Source of the DNA: a virus
Virus record (IMG/VR): IMGVR_UViG_3300042876_000344
DNA length: 64,000 bases
Reading direction: 5' to 3' (one strand)
This document shows, in pieces, positions 3,451-44,825 of this stretch. Under the pieces are notes generated by a model that saw only the letters and a list, made by a program, of their open reading frames with translations, did not search any database and was not told where the DNA came from. The position numbers were made by a program, and so were the translations under genes. How positions within the stretch are numbered: position 1 is the stretch's first letter; the number at the start of each line of letters is the position of its first letter.

Positions 3451-4363
3451 CAAGTCCTCTATTGAGTGGACCGACGCGACATGGTCCCCCTTCCGCGGCT
3501 GCACCCGGATCTCCCCTGGCTGCCAGAACTGCTATGCCGAGCGCATGGCAGCGCGCAATTTGCTAGGGCACAGATCACCCACGACGGGCAATCCGTTCGC
3601 CAACATGACGCAGGGTGGGCCGCGCTGGACGGGCAAGGTGGAGTTGATCGAGAGCCAGATGAATGCGCCCCTTCGCTGGCGCAGGCCGCGCCGGATATTT
3701 GTCAATTCGATGAGCGATACGTTCCACGAGCGCGTGTCCGTTGAGTGGATTGAACGCGTTTTCGCGGTGGCGTCAGTGTGCCAGCAGCACACGTTCATTA
3801 TGCTCACGAAAAGGTCAAAGCGCCTGCGCGAGTATCACGCCGAAGATCTCATGGGGCGCGGGGCAAGGCATCGCGTCTATAACCGCGCGTACGCCCTCGG
3901 GGCAATCTGGCAGCGGAGTCCCTCCGTAGGCTGGCCGCTCCGCAATATCCACATGGGCATCTCCGCTGAGGATCAACCGCGCTTCGATGAGCGAGTTGAA
4001 GATCTGCGCGCAACGCCCGCCGCCGTCCGCTGGCTCTCAATGGAGCCGCTACTTGGCCCCATTGATCTGGCTGGCCGGCTGGACGGCATCCACTGGGTTG
4101 TCGTCGGCGGCGAGTCTGGACCGGGCGCGCGGCCAGTCCAAAAGGATTGGGTGCGATCCATCCGGAACGCGTGCGTTGAGGCTGGCGTGCCGTTTTTCTT
4201 CAAGCAGTGGGGAGAATATCTCCCTCCAATGACGGATGGCGCGATCACAGATAACGGGCAGGTCCTGAACTGCTCCGATGTGCCAGTGCGTATCGGAAAG
4301 TCTCGCGCTGGGGCATCGCTTGATGGGCGCGAGTGGCGCGAACTGCCGGAGGCTGCGCGATGA
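3443..4363 (+). CDS. phage Gp37/Gp68 family protein (DUF5131-like)
   Basis: N-terminus MADKSSIEWTDATWSPFRGCTRISPGCQNCYAERMA is the hallmark start of the Gp37/Gp68 family. About 306 aa. Confidence 0.8.
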   Translation: MADKSSIEWTDATWSPFRGCTRISPGCQNCYAERMAARNLLGHRSPTTGNPFANMTQGGPRWTGKVELIESQMNAPLRWRRPRRIFVNSMSDTFHERVSVEWIERVFAVASVCQQHTFIMLTKRSKRLREYHAEDLMGRGARHRVYNRAYALGAIWQRSPSVGWPLRNIHMGISAEDQPRFDERVEDLRATPAAVRWLSMEPLLGPIDLAGRLDGIHWVVVGGESGPGARPVQKDWVRSIRNACVEAGVPFFFKQWGEYLPPMTDGAITDNGQVLNCSDVPVRIGKSRAGASLDGREWRELPEAAR

Positions 4364-16920: not shown

Positions 16921-18278
16921 ATTGCCCTCCTCGTTGTAACCTCGACGCCGACCAACGAAACAACGCCAGTGATCGTGTCCGAGGCATGGCCCCTATCTCT
17001 CATGACCTTGAGGTGCATCAGTTCGCCTGCCGCGCATCCGGTCATTGTGATTCCCGTGATGCTGGCCGTGTTGAGTTGCAACGTCGTGCCCTTGGCTGCG
17101 TCGGTAACTGTATTCGCCGTGTTGTACGCTGCGTCGTTGACCTCGGCGTCGGCGCGGCAAGATGTTGCAACCTGCCAAACTACGTCTCCAGTGGTGGCCG
17201 CCGCTTGCCACAGGAATTTCACGTCAACGTTGCCGGCCCAGTCGTCGGGCAGCATGATGATCTGCTGGAGCGAGTAGGTATTGTCGCTGTCCGGGAAATC
17301 AGCAGTCCCCCTCATCATGGTCGTTTCAGTGGACCCCGCCGCGCACGTTGCTGTAGGGGCGTTGGATGCCAGCGTATCCCACATCAGCGTGCCCGTCGTG
17401 CCAGCGCAGCCAGCGGCGGGTAGCCAGATCTTGGAACTGAGCGTGATGACGTTCCCAGTGCCCTCGGCGTCGATGGTCTTGTTGGTGAACGTATCGCTGG
17501 TTGAGGTTGTCACGGCAGCCGTGCAGGACTCAGCCGCGCCGCTCGCATCCACGCCCAACGGGAACGAGCCAGCCGAGCAGTTGGAGCCGTTGGCAGCGAG
17601 CGCCGTGGCTGTCGCCGCGTTGCCCGTCGTGCTCTGATTCAGCGTCGGCACATCCGCAGCCTGAATTGCCGCCGTGGCGGGAATGCCGGTGCTCGGGATG
17701 TGGGTGACAAACTGATTCGCCGTGCGAGTGGCACTCGGAACGACGGTGGTGGATTTCACGCCATTTTCGTTGATCGCATAGAGCGTGAGGCTCGTACTGT
17801 CGAACCACATGCCCATCGTGCTCGCGGCAGGCGTACTCAGCGCCGCGCCCGTCGTGCCCGTGGCGGCAAACTGGCCAGTGCCGGAGGTGGAGAGGACTTT
17901 CTGCCAGCCGGAAGCCGAATCGCAGAACCAGAGGACTTTTGGCGTGGTATCGGTGCGCAACTGCCACTGCTGGCCAGCGGTGCAGGCGCCGGAGGGGTCT
18001 GCGGTCACAGAGGTGACGGCCATGTTGCCGCTACCTGCCGAAGCCTCATCCGCCCAGGTGTTCGTGCCGGTACACAACCGCCCCTTGTGAGTCGTGGTGT
18101 TGTAGTAGCGCATCCCTTCCGTGCAGGTCCCAGGATCGGAGGACTTCTCCGGAACAGGCCGAGAACTGAGAGCCGCGCTCATGTCGATCTTCGTGGCCGC
18201 ATTCGCGGTGTGGCCGTAGGTTTCAGTCTGCGCCCATGCCGCGGACGCCAGAACCAGGAGAGAAATCAGGTATCTCAT
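16917..18278 (-). CDS. secreted-looking fibre-like protein
   Basis: MRYLISLLVLASAAWAQT. Contains a CTEGMRYYNTTTHKGRLCTGTNTW motif like the collagen-like neighbour. T/A/S-rich. Confidence 0.7.
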   Translation of the reverse strand: MRYLISLLVLASAAWAQTETYGHTANAATKIDMSAALSSRPVPEKSSDPGTCTEGMRYYNTTTHKGRLCTGTNTWADEASAGSGNMAVTSVTADPSGACTAGQQWQLRTDTTPKVLWFCDSASGWQKVLSTSGTGQFAATGTTGAALSTPAASTMGMWFDSTSLTLYAINENGVKSTTVVPSATRTANQFVTHIPSTGIPATAAIQAADVPTLNQSTTGNAATATALAANGSNCSAGSFPLGVDASGAAESCTAAVTTSTSDTFTNKTIDAEGTGNVITLSSKIWLPAAGCAGTTGTLMWDTLASNAPTATCAAGSTETTMMRGTADFPDSDNTYSLQQIIMLPDDWAGNVDVKFLWQAAATTGDVVWQVATSCRADAEVNDAAYNTANTVTDAAKGTTLQLNTASITGITMTGCAAGELMHLKVMRDRGHASDTITGVVSLVGVEVTTRRAM

Positions 18279-19516
18279 TAGAATGACCTCACAATCGTGG
18301 CTCGGAACGTTTGGGCGGAAATCGTAGCCGTTCCCGCGATGCGGCAGACCCGCAACGTGACGGTGTTCGCACTGCTGACGTAGGCAGACCAGAGCAGGCC
18401 AGCACCTAGCCCGGTGGGTGCGCCGATCATCACCTCATCGCCGGTTGCCGCGCCGGTGACGGTGATGCTGCCTTCCTCGCAGGAGTTGGTGAATGTGGAC
18501 ATGCTGAGGGAGGCTGTTCCAGTGATCCGCGTTGGCACGATGGCCGGGTCCATCAGGATCAGCGAGCCACTCGGAGGCCCGCCGACGTAGCAGGAGCCCG
18601 TGTACGCGCTGCCCGCCGCCGGGTTGATCGTCACATCGCCGCTGCTGTTCGTGGTGTAGGCCACGCCGCTCGCCCAGACGCCATCTGACGTTCGGCGGCA
18701 GCCTAGGAATACCGGAGTCGTCCCTAGTCCGTGCGTGGCCGCTGTGACCGTCCTGGACGTCTCGCCCGCAAATGCGATCAGGTAGGGCGAGGCGGAGCCC
18801 GTGCCCTCACCCGCAGGTCCAGTCGCTCCGGTAGCACCCGTGGCACCGGTCGCCCCGGCAACTCCCTGGATGCCCTGAGAGCCTGTCGCGCCAGTGGCGC
18901 CGGTTGCGCCTGTCGGGCCAGTCGGCCCCGTGGGCCCAGCCGTTCCAGAGCCGCCGCTGCCGCCGCCGCCCGTGGTGGTCCAGCAGGTGCCCGTCTCGGC
19001 AGGCGAGAATCCCACCGTAACCGAGTTCAGACCGAACACGGGAGCAATCGGCGTGATCTCCGTGTCGTCGCTGGCCCTTCGGCATGTGATCGTGACGGCC
19101 TTGGTATTCCAGTTGTGGGTGACGGTCGCACTGGTAGCGGAGGAGAATGACTGTTCAGCCACTGAGCCAACCGGTCCAGTTGGTCCTGTCGGCCCCGATG
19201 GCCCCGTGCTCCCGGTCGCTCCACTGGGCCCCGTCGGGCCCGTTGGCCCTGCCGGTCCAGTTGCACCCGCGGCTCCGGCTGTTCCTGTTGGTCCTGTCGG
19301 ACCCGTTGGACCGATGCTGCCGGCGCCGGCGGCGACCCAGGTGTCGGGCGGGACGGCGCAGTTATAGAGGCCGGCGCTGGCTCCGGTTTTCTGGAAGAGG
19401 TCGCCAAGGTTGCACTTCGCCGGGAGCGTTCCCCCTTGGGGGGTCACCCGGCGCGCGCCGCCAAATTGGGCCATCAGCGGCAAGGATAAAACCAAAACCG
19501 CCAGAACGTGTTTCAT
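18278..19516 (-). CDS. collagen-like triple-helix-repeat fibre protein with signal-like N-terminus
   Basis: MKHVLAVLVLSLPLMAQ. Two G-x-y tracts (GPTGPTGPTGTAGAAGATGPAGPTGPTGPSG... and GPTGPTGPTGATGATGATGSQGIQG...). Confidence 0.85.
   Translation of the reverse strand: MKHVLAVLVLSLPLMAQFGGARRVTPQGGTLPAKCNLGDLFQKTGASAGLYNCAVPPDTWVAAGAGSIGPTGPTGPTGTAGAAGATGPAGPTGPTGPSGATGSTGPSGPTGPTGPVGSVAEQSFSSATSATVTHNWNTKAVTITCRRASDDTEITPIAPVFGLNSVTVGFSPAETGTCWTTTGGGGSGGSGTAGPTGPTGPTGATGATGATGSQGIQGVAGATGATGATGATGPAGEGTGSASPYLIAFAGETSRTVTAATHGLGTTPVFLGCRRTSDGVWASGVAYTTNSSGDVTINPAAGSAYTGSCYVGGPPSGSLILMDPAIVPTRITGTASLSMSTFTNSCEEGSITVTGAATGDEVMIGAPTGLGAGLLWSAYVSSANTVTLRVCRIAGTATISAQTFRATIVRSF
18803..18946 (-). 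repeat. collagen G-x-y repeat tract 2 (coding)
   Basis: About aa 191-238 of the same protein. Confidence 0.8.
19166..19321 (-). repeat. collagen G-x-y repeat tract 1 (coding)
   Basis: About aa 66-117 of the 18278-19516 protein. Confidence 0.8.
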
Positions 19517-20826: not shown

Positions 20827-21506
20827 TACTTCACCACCCTCCAGCCCCAGGCTTCCTTCAGGTGCTTGACTCCCTTGGAGTCGGTGAAGATATCGCCCAC
20901 GGCATAGCCGTCGGGCTGGGTCCTCAGTTCATGCTGCGCGGCGCTGATCCCGGAAACGCGCCCCAAGGGGCCTTCGCCCTCGGGGGTGGGCGCCTGCGTC
21001 GACACGGGGGCGGGGGGTGTGGGCGGGATCTCTGCGGCCGGGACCGGACCGGGGGCGGGGCGGGGAACTTCCAGTTCGTCTATCAGGTCCAGGTCGGACT
21101 CTACCGATACGCCGGCGCCGGCGTGGTAGTAGCGGTCGACGATGCCGGCAGCGTTCAATCGGCGCCCGTTGGGCAGGACCACGGAATAGGTCAGCTTGTC
21201 GGCGTAGTAGATTCCACCTTCGATCCCACGGACAGCCTCAAGGGTGGCGCCGGGAACGAACAATTGGACCAAGCGGAGAGCTTCCTGCGCGCCGGAGGGG
21301 CTCGCGCTCTGTTTCGGGTTGACGTAATGGTTCACTTGCCCGTTCGTCGTGTTGTACACCGCGATGGCGTCAAACAACGCGTAATAGTCTGGGACGAAGG
21401 TGTAATCCGGCTCCGTTCCTTTCGGATGGAAATACGGGTTGTGTGCGGCTGGGCCAGCGTATCCCCAGTCATTGGGGAGGGGTGAGTTTCTGAGGGCGAT
21501 ATTCAT
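20826..21506 (-). CDS. hypothetical protein with Pro-rich linker
   Basis: 226-aa ORF, tightly coupled at both ends. Confidence 0.6.
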   Translation of the reverse strand: MNIALRNSPLPNDWGYAGPAAHNPYFHPKGTEPDYTFVPDYYALFDAIAVYNTTNGQVNHYVNPKQSASPSGAQEALRLVQLFVPGATLEAVRGIEGGIYYADKLTYSVVLPNGRRLNAAGIVDRYYHAGAGVSVESDLDLIDELEVPRPAPGPVPAAEIPPTPPAPVSTQAPTPEGEGPLGRVSGISAAQHELRTQPDGYAVGDIFTDSKGVKHLKEAWGWRVVK

Positions 21507-21985
21507 TCAGGCAATCCTTTCGACTGGGCCCATGCGCGATAATCCGCATCTCTGGGCCACACGAGAGACGGACATTCGGTTGCCCGCACCTGACGGTGCA
21601 GGAGGATTTTCGTAATCGGGTGCCGCGCCATGATCCAGCGGATGACGGCAATCAGGGTTTCATCCTGTTCTTGGGTGAGCCCTTCCTTCTCGCCCTGGGG
21701 CAATGGGCGATAGGCTTCAATTTCAATCCCGATGGAGGAGTGGTTGATGTCGCGGTTGCCAGCATGCCAGGCAGCATCCTTTTCGTCGACGCATTGGATA
21801 ACGGCGCCGCCCCTGGTGATAACGTAGTGCGCGCTGACCTGTGATTTCGCATCCTGGAACCACTTCACCGCGCCCGCTGCCTTGCCAGACGTGTTGTGCA
21901 GCACGATGGCAGAGATCTCTTTTTCGCGCGGCGACCGATTGGGCGACCGCGCGAATGAGATCGCAAAGTGCAGCGCATTATCCAA
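21503..21985 (-). CDS. N-acetylmuramoyl-L-alanine amidase (Amidase_2/PGRP-type endolysin)
   Basis: AIVLHNT...VSAHYVI...AAWHAG...HSSIGIEIE motifs. The start is uncertain: TTG 21985 (GAGG 7 nt upstream, 8-nt overlap) is preferred over ATG 22048 or 22096, which would overlap the upstream gene by 71 nt or more. Confidence 0.8.
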   Translation of the reverse strand: MDNALHFAISFARSPNRSPREKEISAIVLHNTSGKAAGAVKWFQDAKSQVSAHYVITRGGAVIQCVDEKDAAWHAGNRDINHSSIGIEIEAYRPLPQGEKEGLTQEQDETLIAVIRWIMARHPITKILLHRQVRATECPSLVWPRDADYRAWAQSKGLPE

Positions 21986-22382
21986 GGTACGGCCTCGAAA
22001 CGACGAAGAAACTCCGGTCGGCCGTCTGGACAACCGGCGACGTCCCATCGTGCGAGATGAGTTGGATGAACCGGCCGGCGGCGAAATCGCCTCCAACCAG
22101 CGTCATGAAGCTGCTCGCCGGGCCGGCAGTGTACTCGACAGGAGCCCCGCCGACATCGTAGACGGGCGCCCATCCAGCGTCGTTGTAGGCTGGCACGTCG
22201 TTGGGATAGGCGAGCCCGCGGCCGTGGTGGACGTTGAGCCTGATCTTGGTCGCTCCCGCATCCCAGGCGGCGGGCATGAAGATGCCGACCAGCGCCTGCC
22301 CGTGGAGGGGGATCGGCTGGCTCACAGACCGGCCAGAAACGAAGCTGGCCGGAATCTCCTGCTGTTGGTAAAACTCGCTCAT
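21978..22382 (-). CDS. hypothetical protein
   Basis: 134 aa, ATGA-coupled to the giant ORF. Confidence 0.6.
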   Translation of the reverse strand: MSEFYQQQEIPASFVSGRSVSQPIPLHGQALVGIFMPAAWDAGATKIRLNVHHGRGLAYPNDVPAYNDAGWAPVYDVGGAPVEYTAGPASSFMTLVGGDFAAGRFIQLISHDGTSPVVQTADRSFFVVSRPYLG

Positions 22383-25300
22383 TCAGGTAGTCTCCTTAGG
22401 AATTCTTTCATGATTTCGACCTTGCGTTCTGGGGTAGCCGTGCGGATTGACTTTCCGCCCTCAGCCTTGATGACAGATTGGCGTGCCTGGTTTGCCGCGG
22501 AGTTGATGGCCCTCTTCTTCTGCTGCTCATCGAACGCATCAAATGCCGGGTTCGCCCTGATTCGCTTGATAGCCGCCCGCGCTGCCTTTTCCTGCGCCTC
22601 GCGCCGGAGGGTGTAGTAGGAATTCTCCTGCGCACCGCCGGCGGCAGACGTGAATCTCTTCAGCACCGCGGTGGGCAGCGTCTCTCCGCCGATCTCTTCG
22701 GGCTTGATCGCGCCCGCCGCTGCCGCTGCTGTGTCGGCGAGGTTCAGCAGTTGCGGCGTCCAGCCCCCGAGCGTGGATTTCACGAACTGCTCCACCTTGA
22801 TGGGAGGAGCGTTCAGTGCGCCGGCCAGCTTCTTCATCGTCCCGCTGGTATTCGGCGCCACCTGCTCCTCCACCGGCAGGTCCTGCAGCCGCTGGTTCAC
22901 GATGGGCTTCTGGCGGAAGGTGTCGAAGTTCGTTGCGTACTCTGTCGACGGCTTCGCGGCCTGCGGCAGGAGCCCCGCCCACATCCCGCGCGGGCTTGGA
23001 TCGAACGGCAACACGGACCCGGCAATCGGCCGTGCCACGTCCTGCAGCGGGTTCACCTTCTCCCCGCCCATCTGCGCTTCAATGGCGCGCCGAACAGGAG
23101 TGGCGATGGCGCCGATATCCGGAGCCATTTTCATTTTGAACACGCCATCGTACCGGCCGGTCTTTTCGTTCTTCACCGCGCCCGGCGCGATGTAGATCAT
23201 GTACCCCTCTTTTTCGTATTCGGGGATATCCCTGTAGATGGCCCTGCGCTTTTCGTCGTACATATTGGCGACGGTGAGCATCGCCATGGGAGCATACACC
23301 CCCACCATGATCTTCGTTGCGGTCTGGACGGGCCGATCCTGGAATGCTGACACGAACGACCTGGCGCCCTGGACGCGGGCGTTCAGGTAGAGGATGGCAC
23401 CGCCTAGGCCGTTGGTGACATCGCCATGCCGCCGATAGTTTGGGAGCTCATTATTGGCCGCATGGACGCCGGCGGCCTCAGCTTCAGCCGGAGTTGCCCC
23501 CCGCCGGAGATTCGCCCGCTCTGTCCCGAGGAACAGACGCGCCCGGCCAAACTGCTCGCCCCGGTTGTTGAAGTCCTCAATCGCGCGGATCAGACCGGCG
23601 GCGCGCTTTACGGGGATGCCGACAGCCCACTTGACCTTGTTGCCCTTGAACCCTTCGGCGTCGACCAAGTGCTTGGCGTAGTCCTTGGCACTGCGAAACT
23701 TCCGCATGCCGCCGACAGTCTGCGGCATCGTCTCACGGAACAGGTCCAGCGAAGTGAACCCGGCCCCGGTTTTCTCGATTCGGCTCCAGGTCTGGTTATG
23801 GAAGTAGGCCGCGGCGAACGCCTGCCCAAACACCTTCGGGTTTAGGGACGTGTCCCGGTATTCCTTCGAATTCACCAGGGTGGTGAACCAGTCTCCCACC
23901 GGGTTAGCAAAACCGAATGCGATGTTCGCCCCCGTCGTGCCCATCCGCGCCAAGCGCGCCGGCCCGTTCATGATGAGAGCCAGGGTCTTGTTCATCTGCT
24001 GGGCGTTGAGACATTTCGCCGCCGCCGCGATCTCCGGCGTGGTCTGGATGACGACCTTCTTGCCGTCGCGCAGATAGGTGAACGACGTTTTCGAGTCTGC
24101 CTCGCTGACCTCCTGCAGGAGCCCCTGCATTCCCGGCTTGTTGGCGTAGCTGGCCAGGAGCGCCGCCGCCTTGTTTTTCTCGCCCTGCTCGAATGCCTTC
24201 CGGGTCCTATCAAGCATCGTCTCAAGCGGGTTTTCGATGGCGCGCTCACTGCCGACACGCTTCTGGTAGACGCTCTGGGCGGAGAGGGATGCCGTCGCCT
24301 TCGTGCCAGACATGTTGGCGGATGCGTCTTCAATGGCGCCCATAATGCGGCTGAGAGGAACATGCTCTGTGCCGTATTGCTGCCGCCAGACGCCGGCGAT
24401 CTGCTGGCTCACCAGCCCTGACTTGACGCTATAATCCAGGAGCCTGTCACCAGCCAGCCCCACCTCTTTGGCGAGTTGCCCGTAGGTGATGCCGGATTCA
24501 TTGGCCGGCATGTTCACATACTTGTTGTAAATTGCCTTCGCTCCGGCCAGGTCAACGCCGGTAGCCCGGTCTTTGCCCTGCGACTCGCGGATGGCTTCCT
24601 TGGCCACAAGGAAATCGTTGAGGGCCTGGTAGTCGTCCGCGGCCTGAATCGCGCGCATGAGCCCGCCGTCGCGGATCTCGCGCTCTGCAAGCTCACGGCT
24701 GCCGAGCGATCGGTCGGCAGCGTTGCTGAAGTCCCGGCGCGATGAATCGTTGTTCTTCGCGAGCACGTCGAGGATCGGGGAGAGGTTGTCGACGAACTCC
24801 GCCTTCCGCTTGGTGAGTTTCTCTAGGAGCGAGTACTCCTTGCCCTTGCGCGCCGCTTCCCGCTTGGCCGCGAGGGTTGCCCGCGCCTGCTCTGCCGCGT
24901 CCATCGGCGGTGCCGGCTGCTTGCCTGGGATCGTGAGGAAGCCGCCCTGGTCGGCTAGGCGGCGGGGGGAGACTCCAGAGGGGGCGTCGAAGAGTCCGGG
25001 ACCTTCTGACGGACCACTGGCCACTCCTCCGCCAGGCTCCGCAGGAACGCCGCCTTCTCCTCCGCGGACAGCCTTGGATACCTCGGCTCTGACGATTCCG
25101 TAGAGTTGATCTGCGACCTGTTTGCGGGGCTTTCCATCGGCAACCTCTCGGGCTGCCTGGGCGATGGCGTCGGCGATTGGACCGGATTTATCCTGGAGGG
25201 CATCGAATACTCCCAGCGCCTCGCCAGCTTCTCCAGCGATCTGCGCGTTTCGTTCCGCCTCTATTTTATTCCCAGCGCCGGCCAAACGCGAGGCCGCGTT

Positions 25301-28300
25301 TTCGTTGCCGACGACGGAGAACAACCGCTTCTCTTGACCGAGCCGCGCCTTGATGTCGGCGACAAGGTGCGCTTCTTCGTTGAAGAGGCTCTCCTCGTAG
25401 GCATTCGTCCCGAACAGGGATTCCTGCTCAACCTGCTTGGATCCAGCCTTGCCTGCCCGGCGAACGACCTCTTCCAGCGCACCCTCTCGCATATTGGGAT
25501 GGCCAGCCATGAACTTCGCGACAGCGATCTGCGCCGCCTCGCTGAGGTTGCCCTTGCCGATGATGGCGCCCTGTCGGTGGGTGAGCCCGCCTCGCACAAC
25601 GTCGTCGAACAGCACGCCGGTCAACTTCGAGAGAGCGAGGCCGTCTTCGGCCACCTTCCCCTTCATCGAAATTCCGTTCGCGGCGAGTTCTTCCGGGGTG
25701 AGTCCACTGTCCCTGAATACCTTGGCTGCGTCAACAGCCGTGCCCTTGCCATCACCGATGTTGATGAGCGCGCCCTTCAGCCGGGCCTGTGCTGCGTTGG
25801 GGGCATCGACATACCGGACAGACATACTGTCCTCGCCGAGGCGTGCGGCCATCTCGTAGCGGTGGTGACCGTTGACAACGTAGGTCTTGCCGTCGGCAGG
25901 GTCGCGCCAGACCGCGATGGTTCCGGCCTTGTCCCTGTCGAACTTCGTGACGCCTTTGTACTCGTCGGTCACACCACCTTTGAGGTAGGCGTCCATCTTG
26001 TACTGGAACCGCTGCGGGTCGACGTGGAGATCCTCGATCGGAACGCGTATCTCCTTCGGATCGGCAACGACGCGCTGCTGCGCAGGGGCGGCCTGCGCTC
26101 CGCCGAGAGGGATATCCACTTGGCTACCATCTCGCTTGCTAAACGAAATGTGATCCAGTGTAATCTCCTGCCCATCCAGCGCCTTGTTGCCAGCGAACTT
26201 CGTGCCCTCGCCGGGCTTCACGTAGGCCAGCGTTACATGCGGCCGGTATGTCGGATGAGTATCGGTGTGTGGCAGGGCATCCGCGATAGCCTTGTTGATC
26301 CGATGAAGATCAGGTGATTCAACGTCGACCTTCACGACGTCAGATCCGCTGGCGTTCTTGGCGGGGAAGATACTAGTTTCCCCGAGGCGAGCACGAACCG
26401 GATGCTCCCGCGACAACACTTCGCGTATTTTTTCAATTGCTGCCGGAGAGTCATCATGCAGCCCGTACTTCACGGTGACATGCGGCTGGCTCTCCCTGCC
26501 ATCTTCCGCCAGCACGAAATCTGGGATTCTCAGGGATTCCTGCTTTACCTTGTCTGCGACTGGACCAGATAGGTTGGCCTGCGTAGATGCAAATTCGTGC
26601 GCAGGGGCGGCCTGCTCCGCCCCTGCTGGTGCTGCCTTCGGTTGGATCACCTCCTCTCTCGGGGGTTCCGACTTGAGTGCAGGCATGAGATCGTCGACGT
26701 GAATTTGAGCGCTGCCCGGGACGCCTACTGGTTGTAGTCCCTCGCGTCCGGAGGGGGGAATTTCTTGCCGGGATGGTCCTTCTGGAACTGCTCCTTGTTT
26801 TTGAAAAACTGGACCTGCTTCTCCCGGTGCTGCGCTTGGCTCTGCGACTGGTACGTTCCCAGGTTCTTGCCCTTGCCTGATACCAGCCGGAACTTGTTGC
26901 CCACTTTCTCGATCATTGGGGACCTCCAGGTCGTCGACAGTGAATACTTTCGCGGACTTCAGCGGGGTAGCCGGCTCGAATAGTGGCTTCGCTGGGGCAG
27001 GGGGTGCAGGGGCCTCAACAGCAGGCGGCTGTCGGGTTTCGTTATCTATGAACGTCTGGGCCGCATCCTGCGCTGACCGGGGTGCTTCGAACACGGCAGC
27101 GGATTCTGCGGCCGACTTGAACGGTGTGGCCGGCAGCGCTGTGTCTGGCCGCGCCTGCCAGGAATATTCCCATGGCAGCCTGGTGGAATCTTCGGGGTGA
27201 ACGTCGGCATAGCCCTGCTGATACGCGGCATCTTGGGCGGCCTTGGTGCGGTCGCCGTACCGTTCGAGCAACTGCTCTTTCCTGGATTTAGTAGGCTGGG
27301 CTACGGGCTGTTCTGTTTTCGGAACAGACGGCGGCATAATCTCCACCGGCTGCTCATTCGGTGCCGTCTCGCGTGTTCCGAAGTAATCGCCAGGGCGTTT
27401 CGCCTGCGCCGCGTGCTCCCGCCGCAACTGCTCCAGTTCGATGTTCGCGCGCTGCTCGCCGAGCCGGGCACCCTTGAAGGACGTCCCATTCGCACCGGGT
27501 GCAGCCAGCCCAGCGCCTGTCAGGAAAGCGGCTGCGGTGTCTGTGGGAGATCCGCCACCGATGGCGGTCTCCGCGCCCATCGCTGTGCCCATGCCAGCCA
27601 TCCTGGTGGCGGTGCGCGCCGGAGCCATGACGTGCCCTAGGGAGCCGAGCGCGGCACCCTTCGCTCCAGCCAGAGCAGCATGCCCGAATCCCTTGTCGGC
27701 TTCAGATGCGGCGTCGACGGCCGCCATGCCGAGAGGACCACCCAGCACCGCCGTAGCCACGCCATACTTCGCCAGATCGACAGGAGCCTGTCCGATGGCC
27801 TCATACAGGGGCTTCGCCAGCCCCGTGGCCCCCTGCCCTTCGAGTTTGTTCGCCTCTCCCTGGTAGAACTCCTCCACTGGAGTATACGGGTTTGCGTTCT
27901 CCGTGCCGGCTACGTGGTAGGTAGTCGCCCCGCGAAGCCCAAGATTCGCCGCCCGTGATGCGTCGGCGGCGATCTCATCGCGCCACCCCTTGCCAGGCGA
28001 GGCAGGAACAGAGGAGGGGACAGGCAGATCTGGCGCGACGGCGGGCTTCGACATATAGGGGTTGCCCGCCATGTCGGCGCCCATCTGCGCCAAGTTCCCG
28101 CCGAGTTTTGCCGTCTTCGCGACAGCGCGATTGTAGCCCTGCTGAATCGACCGCGCCGGCCGGATGATGCTCTCGCTGATGAGGTTCATCCCGGTTGCGC
28201 CGGGCGTCTCCTCCATCTTCACCTTCGGAGCGGCGATGCCCTTGAGAGGGATACCGGCCGCTTGCGATGCCTGCTCGTTGAGATCTGGAGGGACCAGATC

Positions 28301-28342
28301 GTCGACCGAAACCACGAGATCATCTACAGAGTATTTGGGCAT
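22379..28342 (-). CDS. giant polyvalent virion or ejection-type protein with 2H-phosphoesterase-like and ParB/Srx-like domains
   Basis: 1987-codon open frame. Gly/Ala-rich membrane-like N-terminus. Two HxT motifs (PHVTVKYGL near nt 26482, PHVTLAYV near nt 26239). ParB-like VDPQRFQYK...VVNGHHRYEMA at about 25763-26050. Long alpha-helical C-terminal ~1000 aa. Confidence 0.8.
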   Translation of the reverse strand: MPKYSVDDLVVSVDDLVPPDLNEQASQAAGIPLKGIAAPKVKMEETPGATGMNLISESIIRPARSIQQGYNRAVAKTAKLGGNLAQMGADMAGNPYMSKPAVAPDLPVPSSVPASPGKGWRDEIAADASRAANLGLRGATTYHVAGTENANPYTPVEEFYQGEANKLEGQGATGLAKPLYEAIGQAPVDLAKYGVATAVLGGPLGMAAVDAASEADKGFGHAALAGAKGAALGSLGHVMAPARTATRMAGMGTAMGAETAIGGGSPTDTAAAFLTGAGLAAPGANGTSFKGARLGEQRANIELEQLRREHAAQAKRPGDYFGTRETAPNEQPVEIMPPSVPKTEQPVAQPTKSRKEQLLERYGDRTKAAQDAAYQQGYADVHPEDSTRLPWEYSWQARPDTALPATPFKSAAESAAVFEAPRSAQDAAQTFIDNETRQPPAVEAPAPPAPAKPLFEPATPLKSAKVFTVDDLEVPNDRESGQQVPAGIRQGQEPGNVPVAEPSAAPGEAGPVFQKQGAVPEGPSRQEIPPSGREGLQPVGVPGSAQIHVDDLMPALKSEPPREEVIQPKAAPAGAEQAAPAHEFASTQANLSGPVADKVKQESLRIPDFVLAEDGRESQPHVTVKYGLHDDSPAAIEKIREVLSREHPVRARLGETSIFPAKNASGSDVVKVDVESPDLHRINKAIADALPHTDTHPTYRPHVTLAYVKPGEGTKFAGNKALDGQEITLDHISFSKRDGSQVDIPLGGAQAAPAQQRVVADPKEIRVPIEDLHVDPQRFQYKMDAYLKGGVTDEYKGVTKFDRDKAGTIAVWRDPADGKTYVVNGHHRYEMAARLGEDSMSVRYVDAPNAAQARLKGALINIGDGKGTAVDAAKVFRDSGLTPEELAANGISMKGKVAEDGLALSKLTGVLFDDVVRGGLTHRQGAIIGKGNLSEAAQIAVAKFMAGHPNMREGALEEVVRRAGKAGSKQVEQESLFGTNAYEESLFNEEAHLVADIKARLGQEKRLFSVVGNENAASRLAGAGNKIEAERNAQIAGEAGEALGVFDALQDKSGPIADAIAQAAREVADGKPRKQVADQLYGIVRAEVSKAVRGGEGGVPAEPGGGVASGPSEGPGLFDAPSGVSPRRLADQGGFLTIPGKQPAPPMDAAEQARATLAAKREAARKGKEYSLLEKLTKRKAEFVDNLSPILDVLAKNNDSSRRDFSNAADRSLGSRELAEREIRDGGLMRAIQAADDYQALNDFLVAKEAIRESQGKDRATGVDLAGAKAIYNKYVNMPANESGITYGQLAKEVGLAGDRLLDYSVKSGLVSQQIAGVWRQQYGTEHVPLSRIMGAIEDASANMSGTKATASLSAQSVYQKRVGSERAIENPLETMLDRTRKAFEQGEKNKAAALLASYANKPGMQGLLQEVSEADSKTSFTYLRDGKKVVIQTTPEIAAAAKCLNAQQMNKTLALIMNGPARLARMGTTGANIAFGFANPVGDWFTTLVNSKEYRDTSLNPKVFGQAFAAAYFHNQTWSRIEKTGAGFTSLDLFRETMPQTVGGMRKFRSAKDYAKHLVDAEGFKGNKVKWAVGIPVKRAAGLIRAIEDFNNRGEQFGRARLFLGTERANLRRGATPAEAEAAGVHAANNELPNYRRHGDVTNGLGGAILYLNARVQGARSFVSAFQDRPVQTATKIMVGVYAPMAMLTVANMYDEKRRAIYRDIPEYEKEGYMIYIAPGAVKNEKTGRYDGVFKMKMAPDIGAIATPVRRAIEAQMGGEKVNPLQDVARPIAGSVLPFDPSPRGMWAGLLPQAAKPSTEYATNFDTFRQKPIVNQRLQDLPVEEQVAPNTSGTMKKLAGALNAPPIKVEQFVKSTLGGWTPQLLNLADTAAAAAGAIKPEEIGGETLPTAVLKRFTSAAGGAQENSYYTLRREAQEKAARAAIKRIRANPAFDAFDEQQKKRAINSAANQARQSVIKAEGGKSIRTATPERKVEIMKEFLRRLPE
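26725..26916 (-). CDS. 63-aa gene nested in the +1 frame inside the giant ORF
   Basis: GGAGG at 26923-26927 lies 6 nt before ATG 26916. MIEKVGNKFRLVSGKGKNLGTYQSQSQAQHREKQVQFFKNKEQFQKDHPGKKFPPPDARDYNQ. 53/63 codons end in G/C, versus about one third in the host frame over the same stretch. Confidence 0.6.
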   Translation of the reverse strand: MIEKVGNKFRLVSGKGKNLGTYQSQSQAQHREKQVQFFKNKEQFQKDHPGKKFPPPDARDYNQ

Positions 28343-28349
28343 TTATTGC

Positions 28350-29627
28350 CTACTCGAAAACCACTGAGCCGTCCGGATTGAATCCCTTGATAATCGCCTC
28401 TTTGCCGTCTTTTGTTTTTGCTCGCTGCCCAGCCCTGAACACATGCCCTGAAGAGCTCTTGAATTCAGGGAGCAGCTTCTGCCCGGCTGCTGGCTTCGGC
28501 GGCGCAGGCGGCTTAGGAGGCGCTTGGCCGACTCCCTGTAATACCGGGGCGCGCTCCTGCGTAATGCTCCCTCCCAGGTTCACGATCTCCTGGAGATAGG
28601 ACTCCTGGATCTGCTCCTTCTTTTTGTTGAGCCGGTCCTGGATTTCCTTCTTTGCCGGCTCCAGCAGGGTGTAGTCGATGGCAATTTTCCCGTCAGGGCC
28701 CTTTTTCTGGTAGGGGTTGGTAAGCCCTGCGGTCAACTCTGCTGTCTCCTTTGCGGCCTCTTCTTCTGCCGCCGCCAGTCGGCTCGCCTTGACCCGCTCC
28801 GCCATCTGGAATTGGCCGGGCTTCCCTCTCTCGTCGCCGCTTCCGGCTCCACCAACCTTCGGAGGCCGGATTACATTCTTGCCCGCGATGTAATTGATCC
28901 GGTCTGGCCCCTTCAGCCCCATCTGGTTAGCTTCTTTCATCCGGCGAGCCGTGGCGGCTTCGTCCATCTCTTCCCTCGTGGGAGCCATCGGCTTCATCGG
29001 CCCACCCTCGCCGATCACCCTCCCAGTCAGAGGGTCAATCGCCCGGGCGCCTGGTGACAGGACTGTCGGCGCGGGCTGTTTCGGGTGACGCATCTCATAG
29101 TCAATCTGCGCCTGCTTGCGGTCCTCCGTCTCTCCCTGCCTCGCCCACAATCCGCCCTGCGCCTCGGCCTGCGCCTGCCGCCGCTGCTGCTCTGCCTGGT
29201 TCGCGGCGATCTTCGCGCGGGCTTCCGCAGCACCGACGTCCTGCCCGTACTCATTCATTTGCCGGGTGTACTTCGGATGAATTACCGCCGGATTCAGGAA
29301 CATCTCCCCGACAGTCTGCAGTGCGCCCTTCCAGCCCTTCGCGGGTTGGAGTTGCGGGCGATTCGCGATGGTCTGCTTCAGTTCCTCGTCGGCATTCATG
29401 GCGGCGCGCGTACTCTCGCGAGCATCGTCTGCCGTGCGCCATGCCGGCATCTGCGGGCTGGCTGACTGCGCCGGCATCTGCGGGGGAGCCTCGACCGGCG
29501 GCGGCTCCTGGGCGAGACGCGGAGGCGGCGGAGGGATGTACTTCAGCTTCCGAGGGTCGAGCGGGTCGAGGGCCTCATCGTACTTCGGCTTGTTCGGGTC
29601 ATTGAGATATTCCAAGGGATCGTACAT
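28350..29627 (-). CDS. internal virion protein candidate (Pro/Gln-rich, hypothetical)
   Basis: 425 aa. Position between tail genes and the giant protein. Confidence 0.7.
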   Translation of the reverse strand: MYDPLEYLNDPNKPKYDEALDPLDPRKLKYIPPPPPRLAQEPPPVEAPPQMPAQSASPQMPAWRTADDARESTRAAMNADEELKQTIANRPQLQPAKGWKGALQTVGEMFLNPAVIHPKYTRQMNEYGQDVGAAEARAKIAANQAEQQRRQAQAEAQGGLWARQGETEDRKQAQIDYEMRHPKQPAPTVLSPGARAIDPLTGRVIGEGGPMKPMAPTREEMDEAATARRMKEANQMGLKGPDRINYIAGKNVIRPPKVGGAGSGDERGKPGQFQMAERVKASRLAAAEEEAAKETAELTAGLTNPYQKKGPDGKIAIDYTLLEPAKKEIQDRLNKKKEQIQESYLQEIVNLGGSITQERAPVLQGVGQAPPKPPAPPKPAAGQKLLPEFKSSSGHVFRAGQRAKTKDGKEAIIKGFNPDGSVVFE

Positions 29628-34810: not shown

Positions 34811-35500
34811 TTAGTAGATCATCCTTTCCATCAGACGGCGCGACCGGAATCTGCCGGGTCGCTTCGGCCTTTTCTGTTTTTCCAGGAGCATGGGATGGAT
34901 TAGGCCACGAAGAAGCCCACCTGACCCATCTGCCTCCATATTCGGCCCCAACGCTTCGCGCTTCAGCCGATCAGCCTCACCCGGCCCCATGTTGCGGCCA
35001 GCCAGCCACGAGGCTGTCCGCGTTGCCAGAAAACTCAAACTGTTGTCGATGCCAACGGGTCCGGACGTAGGGCAGGACCCGCTGGCGATGTAATCGACCT
35101 TCAGGTAACGGATGCTGGTCGAGGGCACGAACAGGAGAGTGTCTCCCTCGTAAGCCCACAGGCCGAGGACGGAGCGCGGGGTCGGGTCGGGCAGGAAATC
35201 CACTGGGCGCATGTGCGCCCATGGTTCAGCCGAGGAGCCTCGCTCCCAGAGATTCTCGGGCTCTCCCCAGTCTGAAACTCCCATCGTTGCCGGGGTGAGC
35301 GATGACGTGTTCGCCGGCAGCGTGTAATACACCGTCCGGTTGACCTTCTGCAGGTCCCACTGCATCATGAGGTCCCAGAATTCCCGATACGCCAACCCGA
35401 TAAACGGTCGCTGGGTGGCCGCGTCGAATACCTCCAGCAGAGGGTCGCCGAGGAGTTGGCCCACCAGGTCGTTGATTTCGGCAATCGTCGTATCGGCCAT
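34811..35500 (-). CDS. head-tail adaptor or tail-tubular-A-like protein (by position)
   Basis: ATG 35500 lies 2 nt after the upstream stop. The upstream part of the track ORF is junk-like. MADTTIAEINDLVGQLLGDPLLEVF... Confidence 0.6.
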   Translation of the reverse strand: MADTTIAEINDLVGQLLGDPLLEVFDAATQRPFIGLAYREFWDLMMQWDLQKVNRTVYYTLPANTSSLTPATMGVSDWGEPENLWERGSSAEPWAHMRPVDFLPDPTPRSVLGLWAYEGDTLLFVPSTSIRYLKVDYIASGSCPTSGPVGIDNSLSFLATRTASWLAGRNMGPGEADRLKREALGPNMEADGSGGLLRGLIHPMLLEKQKRPKRPGRFRSRRLMERMIY

Positions 35501-35502
35501 GG

Positions 35503-36231
35503 TTAACCTTTCTTCGGGGGAGGCGGCGGGGGCGAAGAGAACAAGTCTCCGACCGGCAGGCCCTTCTCCCGCTTCGCCTTGTTCAGCATCTCCTGCAGTT
35601 CCGCCTTCTGGAGGTGGATCTGGACCCAACGGCTGTAGTCCATGACGTTCTCGCAGTAGGGGCAGGACAGCACGGAACTTTCGACCAGCCGACCGCACAT
35701 TGAGCAGGGAACCATTTTCAGGTCCTGCGGCGGCCGCATCCACTCGTAGTTGGTGTCACCCAGCCAAGTGGCGGCGCCGCGGTGCAGGTCGGACACGTCC
35801 AACTTCTGCCCGGCCGCCCAGAGGTCCTGAGCCTCCAGCACCAGCACCCGGGCCCAGCGCGCCTGCCGGGCCTCAGCCGCGGCCAGTTCGGCGCTGGTCG
35901 GTTCCGGTCCCTCGCAGATAAACACGCCAGGCGAGCCAACCTCAGAGTGCAGATGGTTCGTCGTGAACGACTCGACAATGGACTGCGCCCACTCCAACGA
36001 GGAGTACGGCACGTCCATGCTGTTGTCGGCGCTCATGTGCGTGTTCTGGAAGAACGGCGGGACGCGCACCACGCAGTATTCGCCGCGCTTCTGCGCCGGG
36101 AATCTGATCGTGGTACGCCAGCCCCCCTGCCCGATTTGGGGCTTGTAGGGCTGCGTGTTCTCCAGGTCCATGAAATGGATGGAGCACACCGTCGTGAACA
36201 TGGAAGAGATGTCGGGGATGGTAGATGTCAT
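35503..36231 (-). CDS. hypothetical structural-module protein with C-terminal zinc ribbon
   Basis: CSMCGRLVESSVLSCPYCENV. ATGA-coupled. Confidence 0.6.
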   Translation of the reverse strand: MTSTIPDISSMFTTVCSIHFMDLENTQPYKPQIGQGGWRTTIRFPAQKRGEYCVVRVPPFFQNTHMSADNSMDVPYSSLEWAQSIVESFTTNHLHSEVGSPGVFICEGPEPTSAELAAAEARQARWARVLVLEAQDLWAAGQKLDVSDLHRGAATWLGDTNYEWMRPPQDLKMVPCSMCGRLVESSVLSCPYCENVMDYSRWVQIHLQKAELQEMLNKAKREKGLPVGDLFSSPPPPPPKKG

Positions 36232-42261: not shown

Positions 42262-43137
42262 ATGAGCCTTTGTGAATGCGGATGTGGTGGGCAAACCAAC
42301 AACGGTCGACGGTTTATCAAGCCGCACCAAGTCAAGCTGATGCAGGAAAGAAATACCGGAAGACAATACACGAGAGAGCATCTTGAGAAACTTTGGGCTG
42401 GTCGGCGCGCAAACCCGCCAACCAAAAAACAACGGACCACGGAGACTATAAGCTGCGCGTGTGGATGCGGCGGCAGTCTTACCACCCCCGATGACAGGGG
42501 AAGACAGAGAAAATTTATACAGAATCATCAGACAAAGACGCTTGTCAGCCTCAGAGAAAGGCCGTACCCGCCATCTCCAGTTAAAGGCAGAAAAGCCAGC
42601 GAAGAGACAAGACGCAAGCTGAGCGAATCGCACAAGGGGAAGCAGTCCCAGTCCAAAGGCATAAAGAGGGGCCCATCTCCACTCAAGGGGATTAGCCGCG
42701 GATTTCGCCACTCCCTCGAAACGAAGAAGAAGATATCCGAAGCCAACAAGGGAGACAAAAGCCACCTGTGGAGAGGCGGCTCTCTCCCAGCCAGAGATGA
42801 GAGGACAAAAACGGTGGAATGGAAGCATCTGCGCCGCATAGTATATGAGAGAGACAAGTGGTGTTGCGTAGTATGCAGAGTCCATTGCAGAAATAGCGGA
42901 GGCAAGAACAAGACAATACAATGCCATCATATAGTGCCAGTGAGGTACGGAGGTAGCGACGACATCAGCAACCTCGCCTCTGTTTGCGTTAGTTGCCACA
43001 AAAGGCAGGAGTCGCTTTACGGTAAACCGTCCTACTTTTGGGGCAGCTACCACAGGGTCCTCCAGGAAAAAGAATCCCCCGCGTCTTTCCCGCAGACCTG
43101 CACAGAATCCTTCACTCCGGCCCCGCCGGCCAAATAG
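42262..43137 (+). CDS. HNH homing endonuclease with NUMOD-like repeats
   Basis: Opposite strand and lower GC. Duplicated C(E/A)CGCGG...HQ(V/T)K modules. GRKASEETRRKLSESHKG and GFRHSLETKKKISEANKG are NUMOD3-like. HNH core QCHHIVPVRYGGSDDISNLASVCVSCH. Confidence 0.85.
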   Translation: MSLCECGCGGQTNNGRRFIKPHQVKLMQERNTGRQYTREHLEKLWAGRRANPPTKKQRTTETISCACGCGGSLTTPDDRGRQRKFIQNHQTKTLVSLRERPYPPSPVKGRKASEETRRKLSESHKGKQSQSKGIKRGPSPLKGISRGFRHSLETKKKISEANKGDKSHLWRGGSLPARDERTKTVEWKHLRRIVYERDKWCCVVCRVHCRNSGGKNKTIQCHHIVPVRYGGSDDISNLASVCVSCHKRQESLYGKPSYFWGSYHRVLQEKESPASFPQTCTESFTPAPPAK

Positions 43138-44825
43138 TTAAACGTTCCTCGTGTCGTCGCGTCACACGTCGGCGCCGTTGCAGAGGAAAGCTGGGGCTGG
43201 TTGGCAAAAACAACGCGTGTCCCCGCGGCATTGAACACCGACCCGAGAACAATCTGGTCTGAAGAACTCGCCCCGATAAGAATCATGTCTGAGGAGTTGG
43301 CGGCATTCCTCGTCCCAATGAACGTATTGTTATGAATCCTCAGCGGCATGTACCCAGCGGACACGGCCGCCGCATTGGAGAAATCAATACCTACGCCATA
43401 GTCGATGATAGGAGTCCCCACGAAGTTGATACCGTACTGCTGAGGCTTGGCGAAGCTGAACTTCATCGTGTTCTTCACCTTGTGGTTCCAGATCCCGCCG
43501 AACAGGTCAACGGCGTTGATAATCCCAGGGGTTGCGTATGTCTGATCTCCCCCTGTGGTTTCGATCCAGTTCCATTGAGTGATATGGTTCCACGATTCGG
43601 ACTGGAGATAATTCCTCCACTCGTATAGCCCGGTCGCCGTGAGCAAATACCCAAACCCGTTGTCCCATGCGCAGCCAAGCGCCGAAGCATAGCAGGCAGG
43701 AGTCCCCAACTCCAGCGACGTTGAGGCGACGGTATCGATCGCGTAGGACCCGTTTGCGATCGTGACTGGAATAGTGAACGTGTTCGAGCCGGTGGAGGTC
43801 GCCGGGAAATTCCCGCGCAGCGTGGTGTTCGCGCTGGTGATATAAACGCCTTGCTGCGAACGGAGATTGTGCGCCGTCGGCGTTGTTACCGTGCACACGT
43901 TCGAGGAGCAACTAGTGGACGACGTAGACAAGCTGTTGAGATCGCCGATTGTTGTGTCTGCAAAAGATGAGCTATCCAGGAATTGAGCGTATATGCCATG
44001 GTAGGGGGGCCTTGCATCAAACGAGATGAAGCCCTTGCCTGCCTTGATGGAACAGACGTCCTTGTTGCTGGTTCCCAGTATCATCCCGCCGCCGGCTGTG
44101 CCGCCCCAGATGACATAATTATCCAGCATGATCTGGCCGGAGCCGTCGCCGCACCTGGGCGTCGTGGTGATACCTGAACCTTCAACCACCAGGCCATAGC
44201 CATTGGTGTGGTTGGCGATGGTGAAATAGTTCGCGACGAAGTTGTACGTGTCATACAGCCAAAGCCCGGTAGCGGCCCGGTTGTTGGCGTCGAAGGTGAT
44301 TTTCTCCACGCTGGAGTTGAGTTGCGTGTACCCGCCGCTGCTGGAAAACTTAACGATAAATCCGCCGGCTGTTGCGCCAGAGGGATACTTCAACAGCGTC
44401 GAGCCCGTGTCGGAAGACCATGGAGTGCGGCTTCCCTGCCCGACCAAGTGAATATTGTTCTTCGTGATAACCAAGTTTGCAATCATGGCCGTGCCAGCGG
44501 GGAACATGATCGTTCCGCCTGTCGACGGCAGCGCGCTGATGCAGGAAGACAGGGCCGAAGTGTCATCGGTTGAGCCATTGACAGCAAGCCCGCAATCCGT
44601 AGTGGCCCGCAGGAAGGGAATCGAAAAGGACCCAGGCGCAGCATAGTCTGTGCCGGAAACGGCTGCAGCCAAATGCCCGCTCCCGTCGATCTTCGTGATC
44701 GAGCCAGACGATGGCAATGACCCTCCGTTGATCGTTGTCAGTGTGGGCTTGTTCTTGATCTGGGTGTTGTAGTCAACCTGCTGGGCAGGGAGCAAAAGCG
44801 GCAGGAGAATCAGTAGTTTCTTCAT
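43047..44825 (-). CDS. tailspike or depolymerase with pectate-lyase-type beta-helix and signal-like N-terminus
   Basis: MKKLLILLPLLLPAQQ. GSTDDTSALSSCISALPSTGGTIMFPAGT...NNIHLVGQG is typical of pectate_lyase_3-type tailspikes. Confidence 0.8.
   Translation of the reverse strand: MKKLLILLPLLLPAQQVDYNTQIKNKPTLTTINGGSLPSSGSITKIDGSGHLAAAVSGTDYAAPGSFSIPFLRATTDCGLAVNGSTDDTSALSSCISALPSTGGTIMFPAGTAMIANLVITKNNIHLVGQGSRTPWSSDTGSTLLKYPSGATAGGFIVKFSSSGGYTQLNSSVEKITFDANNRAATGLWLYDTYNFVANYFTIANHTNGYGLVVEGSGITTTPRCGDGSGQIMLDNYVIWGGTAGGGMILGTSNKDVCSIKAGKGFISFDARPPYHGIYAQFLDSSSFADTTIGDLNSLSTSSTSCSSNVCTVTTPTAHNLRSQQGVYITSANTTLRGNFPATSTGSNTFTIPVTIANGSYAIDTVASTSLELGTPACYASALGCAWDNGFGYLLTATGLYEWRNYLQSESWNHITQWNWIETTGGDQTYATPGIINAVDLFGGIWNHKVKNTMKFSFAKPQQYGINFVGTPIIDYGVGIDFSNAAAVSAGYMPLRIHNNTFIGTRNAANSSDMILIGASSSDQIVLGSVFNAAGTRVVFANQPQLSSATAPTCDATTRGTFNYLAGGAGVKDSVQVCGKDAGDSFSWRTLW

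Follow-up and report, generated by a model that had tools for sequence, protein, structure and literature searches.

The window, a 64,000-nucleotide stretch of DNA, comes from the virus record IMGVR_UViG_3300042876_000344, that of a phage described as a soil phage. We analyzed its giant open reading frame (ORF), whose 1987-residue product, P0001, combines a 2H phosphoesterase cassette, a ParB-fold core, and an LPD38 module. By its sequence, P0001 is a phage-type polyvalent protein, and we hold both the domain identities and the class assignment with high confidence. The reading that we favor, with appreciably less assurance, is that P0001 is packaged in the phage head, co-ejected with the DNA, and equipped with an Acb1-like cyclic-oligonucleotide phosphodiesterase.

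Results

The giant ORF and its plan

The features of the gene are given below. Residue numbers refer to P0001 throughout.

22379-28342, minus strand: giant ORF encoding P0001 (1987 residues), starting with ATG; stop codon at 22379-22381
27443-27775, minus strand: Gly/Ala-rich segment, residues ~190-300, weakly hydrophobic and lineage-specific, aligned in 3-5 of 119 homologues
26606-27352, minus strand: Pro/Ala-rich variable linker, residues 331-579, with a copy-number-variable module of ~100 residues and two VDDL motifs
26598-26615, minus strand: left copy of an 18-nucleotide direct repeat, GCAGGCCGCCCCTGCGCA, bounding the 2H cassette
26087-26605, minus strand: 2H phosphoesterase cassette, 519 nucleotides, residues 580-752, with PF13563 over residues 617-740
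26474-26482, minus strand: catalytic H621/T623
26231-26239, minus strand: catalytic H702/T704
26079-26096, minus strand: right copy of the direct repeat, GCAGGCCGCCCCTGCGCA, 519 nucleotides from the left copy
25043-26065, minus strand: conserved ParB-fold core, residues ~760-1100, with a ParB/Srx-type N-domain and helix-turn-helix (~765-960), a beta hairpin, and long helices
25859-25873, minus strand: NGHHR motif, residues 824-828
24491-25042, minus strand: low-complexity and helical linker, residues 1101-1284, the second payload slot, filled by DUF7178 in the relative P0006
22382-24490, minus strand: conserved C-terminal module, residues 1285-1987, mostly helical
22712-23236, minus strand: Pfam LPD38 (PF18857), residues 1703-1877, 62.9 bits

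The ORF listing and translation gave a single, ATG-initiated frame of 1987 codons, with exactly the coordinates and length reported in the first-pass annotation. Judging from its relatives, this is a real gene and no chance frame of GC-rich DNA, since residues 590-1100 match at least 359 database protein clusters, the C-terminal 700 residues match 39, and close relatives are syntenic. Three of these relatives (P0002, P0003, and P0004) lie on other metagenomic contigs with the gene order of the window. Each is 90% identical to P0001 in the C-terminal module, and P0002 and P0003 are ~97% identical to it over residues 590-1100. A megablast search of the gene against 50,697 phage records yielded zero matches, and the defence-system models of PADLOC did not match the protein. 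Only two Pfam families matched P0001 above threshold: PF13563 and LPD38. The gathering cut-off is 27 bits for both, as it is for the Acb1 family (PF23474). The NCBIfam matches were all to 2',3'-cyclic phosphodiesterases and all sub-threshold.

We mapped the sharing of regions by BLAST of 119 homologues onto P0001. The core (residues ~760-1100) was common to 118 of the 119, the 2H region to ~36, and the C-terminal module to ~19, while the N-terminal 550 residues were found in 3-7 homologues only. From this map follows the plan of the protein as read from its sequence: a lineage-specific N-region with a Gly/Ala stretch, a Pro/Ala linker, the 2H cassette, the ParB-fold core, a second linker, and the LPD38 module.

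The 2H phosphoesterase cassette

PF13563 (2_5_RNA_ligase2) reached 55.8 bits with full-length P0001 and 61.7 bits when the domain was searched by itself. The motifs PHVTVKYGL (H621-V-T623) and PHVTLAYV (H702-V-T704) lie 81 residues apart, and H621, T623, H702, and T704 are invariant in all 22 aligned relatives (alignment A1). The pair of HxT motifs had already been read as that of a 2H phosphoesterase, and the match above the curated cut-off and the invariance of the motifs bear this out.

Sequence searches of the PDB ranked Acb1 of Burkholderia phage BCSR5 (9q2g, 9q2y) first, with E values of 5e-4 for the whole protein, 1.6e-5 for the excised domain, and 4.5e-6 for the family profile. The next matches were plant CPDase, B. 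subtilis YjcG, Acb1 of Erwinia phage FBB1 (7t26, among the top five), and the penguinpox cGAMP (cyclic GMP-AMP) phosphodiesterase. These sequence and profile searches with the 2H domain returned zero LigT/ThpR entries at E < 10. The Pfam Acb1 model matched 22 of 22 relatives at E ≤ 0.01 (best E = 3.3e-9).

Residues 590-1110 were modeled with AlphaFold2 from a 20-sequence alignment. The mean predicted local distance difference test (pLDDT) value was 83.7, and that of the 2H domain was ~90. Foldseek matched the 2H domain to 1jh6 (target-normalized template modeling score, TM-target, of 0.65), 5h7e, 2fyh, Usb1, and 9q2y. At the level of fold, the matches thus comprised CPDase, LigT-like enzymes, Usb1, and BCSR5 Acb1, with the generic 2H enzymes about equal to Acb1.

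Three features characterize Acb1 (Hobbs et al. 2022, PMC9117128): the HxT/HxT tetrad, a set of four aromatic residues that stack on the bases, and a lid at the C-terminus that covers the ligand. P0001 has the tetrad, and F659 and Y699 align with the W/F and Y of BCSR5/FBB1 Acb1; counterparts of the N-terminal Tyr and of the lid Trp could not be placed in the absence of coordinates. The known Acb1 proteins (T4 57B; Erwinia phage FBB1, 7T26/7T27; Burkholderia phage BCSR5, 9Q2G/9Q2Y) share the 2H fold and the tetrad with P0001, and the Acb1 entries are the closest solved sequences to its 2H domain. They are standalone proteins of ~150-165 residues, whereas the P0001 domain is an internal cassette of a 1987-residue late protein. 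Unlike members of the Acb1 family, it also falls under the PF23474 gathering cut-off, and its cyclic-nucleotide activity is a prediction. We therefore file the domain under the 2H superfamily and call it Acb1-like in sequence, not a demonstrated Acb1 member.

The cassette profile was searched against 1.84 billion representatives. At E ≤ 1e-3 it matched 7084 proteins; at E ≤ 1e-30 the matches comprised at least 1909 clusters (50% identity). Among the best 150 matches, 111 (74%) were at least 1000 residues long, the median length was 2185 residues, and only 3 were shorter than 250 residues. Standalone 2H forms, 45-57% identical, do exist, and about half of them have a precomputed Acb1 Pfam hit. 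One of these forms, a 173-residue homologue (53% identical), is encoded at 8001-8522 of L007, a 66-kb contig. Its gene follows three proteins of ~900 residues and precedes a Hydrolase_2 lysin, the same late slot that the giant gene occupies here.

Presence and absence of the cassette

The cassette is bounded by the two copies of a perfect 18-nucleotide repeat. The chance expectation for such a repeat is 0.01 matches, and the gene contains no other perfect repeat of this length. When the five closest proteins are aligned, precisely residues 580-752 are missing from P0004 and P0005, whose flanks run on without a break; the C-terminal module of P0005 is 58% identical to that of P0001, as compared with 90% for P0004. 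The cassette-less locus L005, which is syntenic with the window, has one repeat copy, and both flanks match the window. L010 carries the cassette and retains the left repeat copy only. Precise excision between two such repeats would give the L005 state, which in itself proves neither loss nor gain. In sequence terms, this repeat-bounded presence and absence is a concrete example of in-frame payload exchange.

In more distant relatives the place of the 2H domain varies: P0007-P0010 have it ahead of the core, P0012 and P0016 behind it. Elsewhere in the family, the payloads found instead of the 2H domain or beside it are GGDEF, histidine phosphatase, zeta toxin, RelA/SpoT, ART, cytidylyltransferase-like, and SLT domains.

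The ParB-fold core

A Foldseek search of the model against the PDB matched the core to Noc, ParB (Caulobacter, Myxococcus, Bacillus), KorB, and Spo0J over ~200-220 columns, with E values down to 7.6e-7. The ParB-type matches (7nfu, 6t1f, 7bnr, 6sdk, 8qa9, and 1vz0) had a probability of 1.00. Since the match to ParB/Noc/KorB extends over this length, both the nucleotide-binding N-domain and the helix-turn-helix are present in the predicted fold. Among the PHROG families, residues 761-888 matched the ParB-like phrog_1033 (E = 1.6e-6; phrog_620, E = 0.018). Residues 748-1075 matched positions 1000-1333 of 1362, a C-terminal extension, of the 'portal protein' family phrog_21 (E = 1e-64). A ParB-nuclease/Srx-like block had been proposed here in the first-pass annotation, and phrog_1033 and the Foldseek matches support it. 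Profile searches thus failed for neither the 2H nor the ParB assignment.

Three conserved blocks, DPxRFQ(Y/F)K, VVNGHHR, and GALINIxEGRGT, follow the order of ParB boxes I-III. In P0001, RFQYK (778-782) lies within VDPQRFQYK (~775-782), and VVNGHHRYEMAARLG lies at ~821-835. The invariant residues of the core are F779, Q780, K782, W812, D814, P815, N824, G825, H826, and R828. We take its G-H-H-R form to be of the nuclease/Srx-like type, and not the GERRxRA of the CTP clamps. The core resembles the CTP-dependent clamps ParB, Noc, and KorB as well as the ParB-like nucleases in its predicted fold, box order, and the invariant Arg of G-x-x-R. In contrast to ParB/Noc/KorB, its motif reads N-G-H-H-R, and P0001 is without a ParA partner, a parS context, and the ParB C-terminal dimerisation domain.

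Pfam ParBc (PF02195) had no match at E ≤ 1, no other Pfam model recognized the core, and its sequence profile retrieved nothing from the PDB at E ≤ 1. In a viral structure library, the best matches to the core were uncultured-phage entries named 'Large polyvalent protein associated domain-containing protein'. We rejected membership of the DdrB-like ParB group, for which hhalign against P1 DdrB returned a probability of 0.25% and Pfam gave no ddrB-ParB match. The metagenomic relative P0011 (2352 residues) has two tandem ParB-fold cores (1618-1955 and 1994-2348) after a MuF domain.

The C-terminal module and the virion context

LPD38, which lies inside the C-terminal module, exceeded its Pfam cut-off, and residues 1290-1921 matched phrog_9854. 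The AlphaFold model of this module was poor (pLDDT = 64.9; predicted template modeling score = 0.29). A PDB profile search returned noise and Foldseek against solved structures nothing significant; we did not assign a fold to the module because of these results and the low-confidence model. This part of the protein had been described as a ~1000-residue helical region. The helical character holds, and distinct parts can be told apart within the region: the ParB core contributes its helical end, a low-complexity linker comes next, and the rest is the ~700-residue LPD38 module with some beta hairpins.

2H, ParB, and LPD38 domains are specific to phage-type polyvalent proteins, for which the P1 Dar/Ddr proteins and T4 Alt are the packaged prototypes (Iyer et al. 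2017, PMC5512222). LPD38 thus bears out the 'polyvalent' label of the first-pass annotation. As in the class described by Iyer, Burroughs, Anand, de Souza & Aravind (2017, J Bacteriol), P0001 is giant, multidomain, and in a late virion context, and its relatives show shuffled architectures with GGDEF, RelA/SpoT, ART, SLT, and MuF payloads. In contrast to the class as described there, it has no MPTase/zincin, its ParB core is not detectably DdrB-like, and its host lineage, going by its homologues, is Acidobacteriota.

Relatives connect the conserved parts of P0001 with the virion. P0076 joins the ParB core (557-876) to a Mu-type portal (Portal_Mu, 318 bits, residues 45-406), and in P0011 and P0116 the fusion partner of the core is a MuF head protein. 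In Prochlorococcus phage P-SCSP1g (Autographiviridae, T7-like), the core lies inside a 2563-residue protein that occupies the gp16 slot, after gp11, gp12, and three further genes and before a 1079-residue protein. The LPD38 C-module ends the largest structural-module protein of E. coli podovirus PTXU04 (gp25, 2197 residues), Bacillus phage Page (gp20, 1679 residues), and Achromobacter phage CF418P1 (2684 residues). At least two of these three phages are podoviruses, and the LPD38 giant stands directly before the lysis genes or the module end. A location in the head is suggested by the portal and MuF fusions of the core and by the gp16-slot position in a T7-like phage; packaging of P0001 in the virion is on these grounds probable. 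The same fusions and the P-SCSP1g relative favor the earlier proposal that the gene sits in the slot of podovirus ejected internal proteins.

Like the podovirus ejection proteins (T7 gp14-gp16; P22 gp7/gp16/gp20), P0001 is the largest protein of the virion module and is encoded after the head and tail genes. It differs from the solved ones in that neither sequence nor fold similarity to them was detected and in having no lytic transglycosylase, although some relatives carry SLT. A link to the T7 gp16-type internal core proteins was rejected, as the C-terminal module gave no PDB profile match and its low-confidence model no fold match, and Pfam found no SLT domain in P0001.

The N-terminal region and the linkers

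Residues 201-300 contain 21% Gly and 27% Ala. The best 19-residue Kyte-Doolittle window (residues 194-213) reached 1.34, with no convincing helix, and a transmembrane N-terminus was rejected as unsupported. Of the glycine-rich, membrane-like N-terminus proposed earlier, the glycine richness was confirmed and the membrane-like character was not.

The ~100-residue module of the Pro/Ala linker (residues 348-447; 27002-27301, minus strand) contains AYQQGYADVHPEDSTRLPWEYSWQARP and PFKSAAESAAVFE. It occurs once in P0001, not at all in P0003 and P0004, and twice in P0002, P0005, and P0006. VDDL motifs are found at residues 6, 13, 469, and 549 and are confined to P0001, P0003, and P0004. In the relative P0006 (locus L006), DUF7178 (PF23802; residues 1258-1405) follows the ParB core and precedes the LPD38 module, which reveals a second payload slot at the position of P0001 residues ~1119-1124.

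The phage genome and the neighboring genes

The window is nearly the whole phage genome, given that the longest contig with this protein measures 66,309 bp. The source names of the homologues belong to Acidobacteriota: Candidatus Angelobacter, Bryobacteraceae, Sulfotelmatobacter, and Vicinamibacterales. Among cultured Acidobacteria phages, the jumbo myovirus Tunturi 5 gave the sole match, confined to the 2H domain, and with this single match we rejected kinship to these phages. The genes of note outside the giant ORF are as follows.

47320-49305, same strand as the giant gene and upstream of it: large terminase
43047-44825, minus strand: 592-residue protein, pectate-lyase-like in fold (PF12708, 34.9 bits), encoded between terminase and head genes
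34811-35743, minus strand: ORF with a weak, sub-threshold match to the SU10 adaptor (PF24175, E = 0.009), the sole hint to the identity of a head-to-tail gene
21978-22382, minus strand: downstream gene of 134 residues, syntenic in relatives, with AAGGAG 8 nucleotides upstream of its ATG
21503-22096, minus strand: Amidase_2 endolysin, the start of the lysis genes just past the giant gene; its true start is probably internal to the ORF
18278-19516, same strand as the giant gene and downstream of it: collagen-like fibres
3353-4363, plus strand: DUF5131 match
50822-52273, plus strand: ResIII/SNF2-type helicase
55865-57856, plus strand: Prim-Pol/PriCT/VapE primase-helicase
63028-63888, plus strand: tyrosine integrase

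The giant gene has a terminase-led late operon on one side and the endolysin on the other, in the order giant gene, 134-residue gene, amidase. This late gene neighborhood recurs in L005, L006, and L010. The closest cultured relatives of the terminase are at most ~30% identical, and several of them are known or named as podoviruses. At 22379-22382, the ATG of the 134-residue gene overlaps the stop codon of the giant gene (ATGA). The ATG of the giant gene comes 7 nucleotides after the TAG of the upstream gene (28343-28352, minus strand), with no clear Shine-Dalgarno sequence there. This overlap and this spacing suggest translational coupling along the operon. The 592-residue protein is a probable tailspike or depolymerase, and the phage is probably temperate. 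PHROG and Pfam scans of the neighboring virion proteins were mostly empty, so assignments of portal, capsid, and tail genes in this phage are positional guesses.

Discussion

In the model that we favor, the gene product would be a beads-on-a-string polyvalent polypeptide, made late with the virion genes, most likely packaged in the head and sent into the host together with the DNA. Two invariant parts would form its constant chassis. The ~700-residue LPD38 C-module may serve as a structural or ejection anchor, and the central ParB-fold core may bind or nick DNA in a nucleotide-dependent manner and hold the protein to the genome. The slot upstream of this core takes exchangeable payloads and is filled here by an intact 2H phosphoesterase. 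Through its HxT/HxT tetrad, this domain would most likely hydrolyze host cyclic oligonucleotide immune signals without a metal, from the first moment of infection. Such a role in the degradation of cyclic-nucleotide signals had been put forward earlier as plausible; with Acb1 proteins as the nearest solved sequences it has gained strength, and it is still an inference.

An ejected protein that counters signaling-based defence has a precedent: the T7-type ejection protein Gp15 blocks an effector of the cyclic oligonucleotide-based antiphage signaling system (CBASS) non-enzymatically (2025 preprint, 10.1101/2025.07.23.666291). In the literature that we searched, we found no ejected Acb1-type enzyme and nothing tying Acb1 to packaged polyvalent proteins.

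Several results weigh against this model. The Acb1 Pfam model stays just under its cut-off on P0001 (17.4 bits for the whole protein and 25.8 bits for the excised domain), and the generic 2H folds (plant CPDase, LigT-like, Usb1) match the predicted structure as well as Acb1 does. The substrate is for these two reasons not readable from homology. Of the features that characterize Acb1, the tetrad and two aligned aromatic residues are those that could be traced in P0001. The arguments for packaging are confined to gene position and to fusions in other proteins. A processing protease of the zincin MPTase type, common in polyvalent proteins, was not found in P0001; the C-module has no detectable similarity to any solved ejection protein; and the N-terminus, as judged from hydrophobicity, is without a clear membrane helix. 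For host cyclic-oligonucleotide signals as the substrate of the 2H domain we put the odds at slightly less than even.

The 2H domain might instead act on RNA, as an RNase, by Usb1-like trimming of 3' ends, or as a 2',3'-cyclic phosphodiesterase. RNA ends would then be healed or altered, for example in tRNAs cut by host anticodon nucleases, or host transcripts would be degraded on entry. The best Pfam family is indeed the generic PF13563, LigT_PEase matches 17 of 22 relatives, and the fold matches LigT-like enzymes, CPDases, and Usb1 at E values similar to Acb1. Iyer et al. (2017, PMC5512222) favored an RNase role as well, in parallel with PBECR RNase fusions to MuF and portal proteins. Against this stand the top PDB profile matches, which are viral enzymes that degrade cyclic dinucleotides, with LigT/ThpR absent. 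In addition, a non-exhaustive scan of the ~30 larger ORFs of the window revealed no RNA ligase or kinase-phosphatase partner. We regard action on RNA as unlikely.

A different objection leaves the substrate aside and concerns the place of action. The protein, or its enzymatic domains, could work in the producing cell and not after ejection: the 2H domain would be present when capsid or assembly proteins trigger cyclic-nucleotide defences, the giant would be mainly an assembly or structural component, and the enzymatic domains would need no delivery into the next host. The location of the gene within the late operon, with its tight gene junctions, fits this, and so does the standalone 2H homologue of the other 66-kb contig, since a late slot before the lysin indicates late expression without fusion to an ejected carrier. 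The title of a preprint also links virion assembly proteins to evasion of type I CBASS (10.1101/2023.05.21.541620). Relatives in which the ParB core is joined to a portal or MuF protein, and the T7-like phage that has it in the gp16 slot, point the other way, to a location inside the head. So do P1 DarA, DarB, and DdrB and T4 Alt, which are packaged and injected (PMC5512222), and the annotation of DarA, which reads 'released from the phage upon host infection'. Action confined to the producing cell seems to us quite improbable, and we retain delivery with the virion.

The polyvalent class, its domains, and even a suggested defence-nucleotide role for polyvalent 2H domains were published in 2017 (Iyer et al., PMC5512222), and the reading of the first-pass annotation was wholly anticipated there. 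New are the link by sequence to Acb1, together with the extent of the clade so linked, the in-frame 2H cassette between its repeats, and a widespread ParB-fold core that no Pfam model covers. The fusions of this core to Mu-type portal or MuF head proteins and the place of LPD38 giants as last virion gene before lysis in three cultured phages are likewise new here. The family is large and almost entirely metagenomic, and its most conserved piece is the ParB-fold core, found in at least 359 clusters. For packaging, tractable cultured relatives are available in E. coli phage PTXU04 (gp25), Bacillus phage Page (gp20), and Prochlorococcus phage P-SCSP1.

Should the 2H cassette be an active Acb1-like enzyme that travels inside the virion, CBASS, and perhaps also type III CRISPR (clustered regularly interspaced short palindromic repeats) systems, would be countered before any phage gene expression. 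We also put forward a broader and speculative proposal, which we think more apt to fail than to hold. Acb1-type phosphodiesterases may be mainly swappable cassettes of giant, virion-delivered polyvalent proteins, not small early genes. The ParB-fold core would be the DNA-riding carrier that gets the payloads packaged and ejected, and short repeats in the linkers would allow their in-frame gain and loss. If this is true, many phages would arrive in the host with an anti-signaling enzyme already made.

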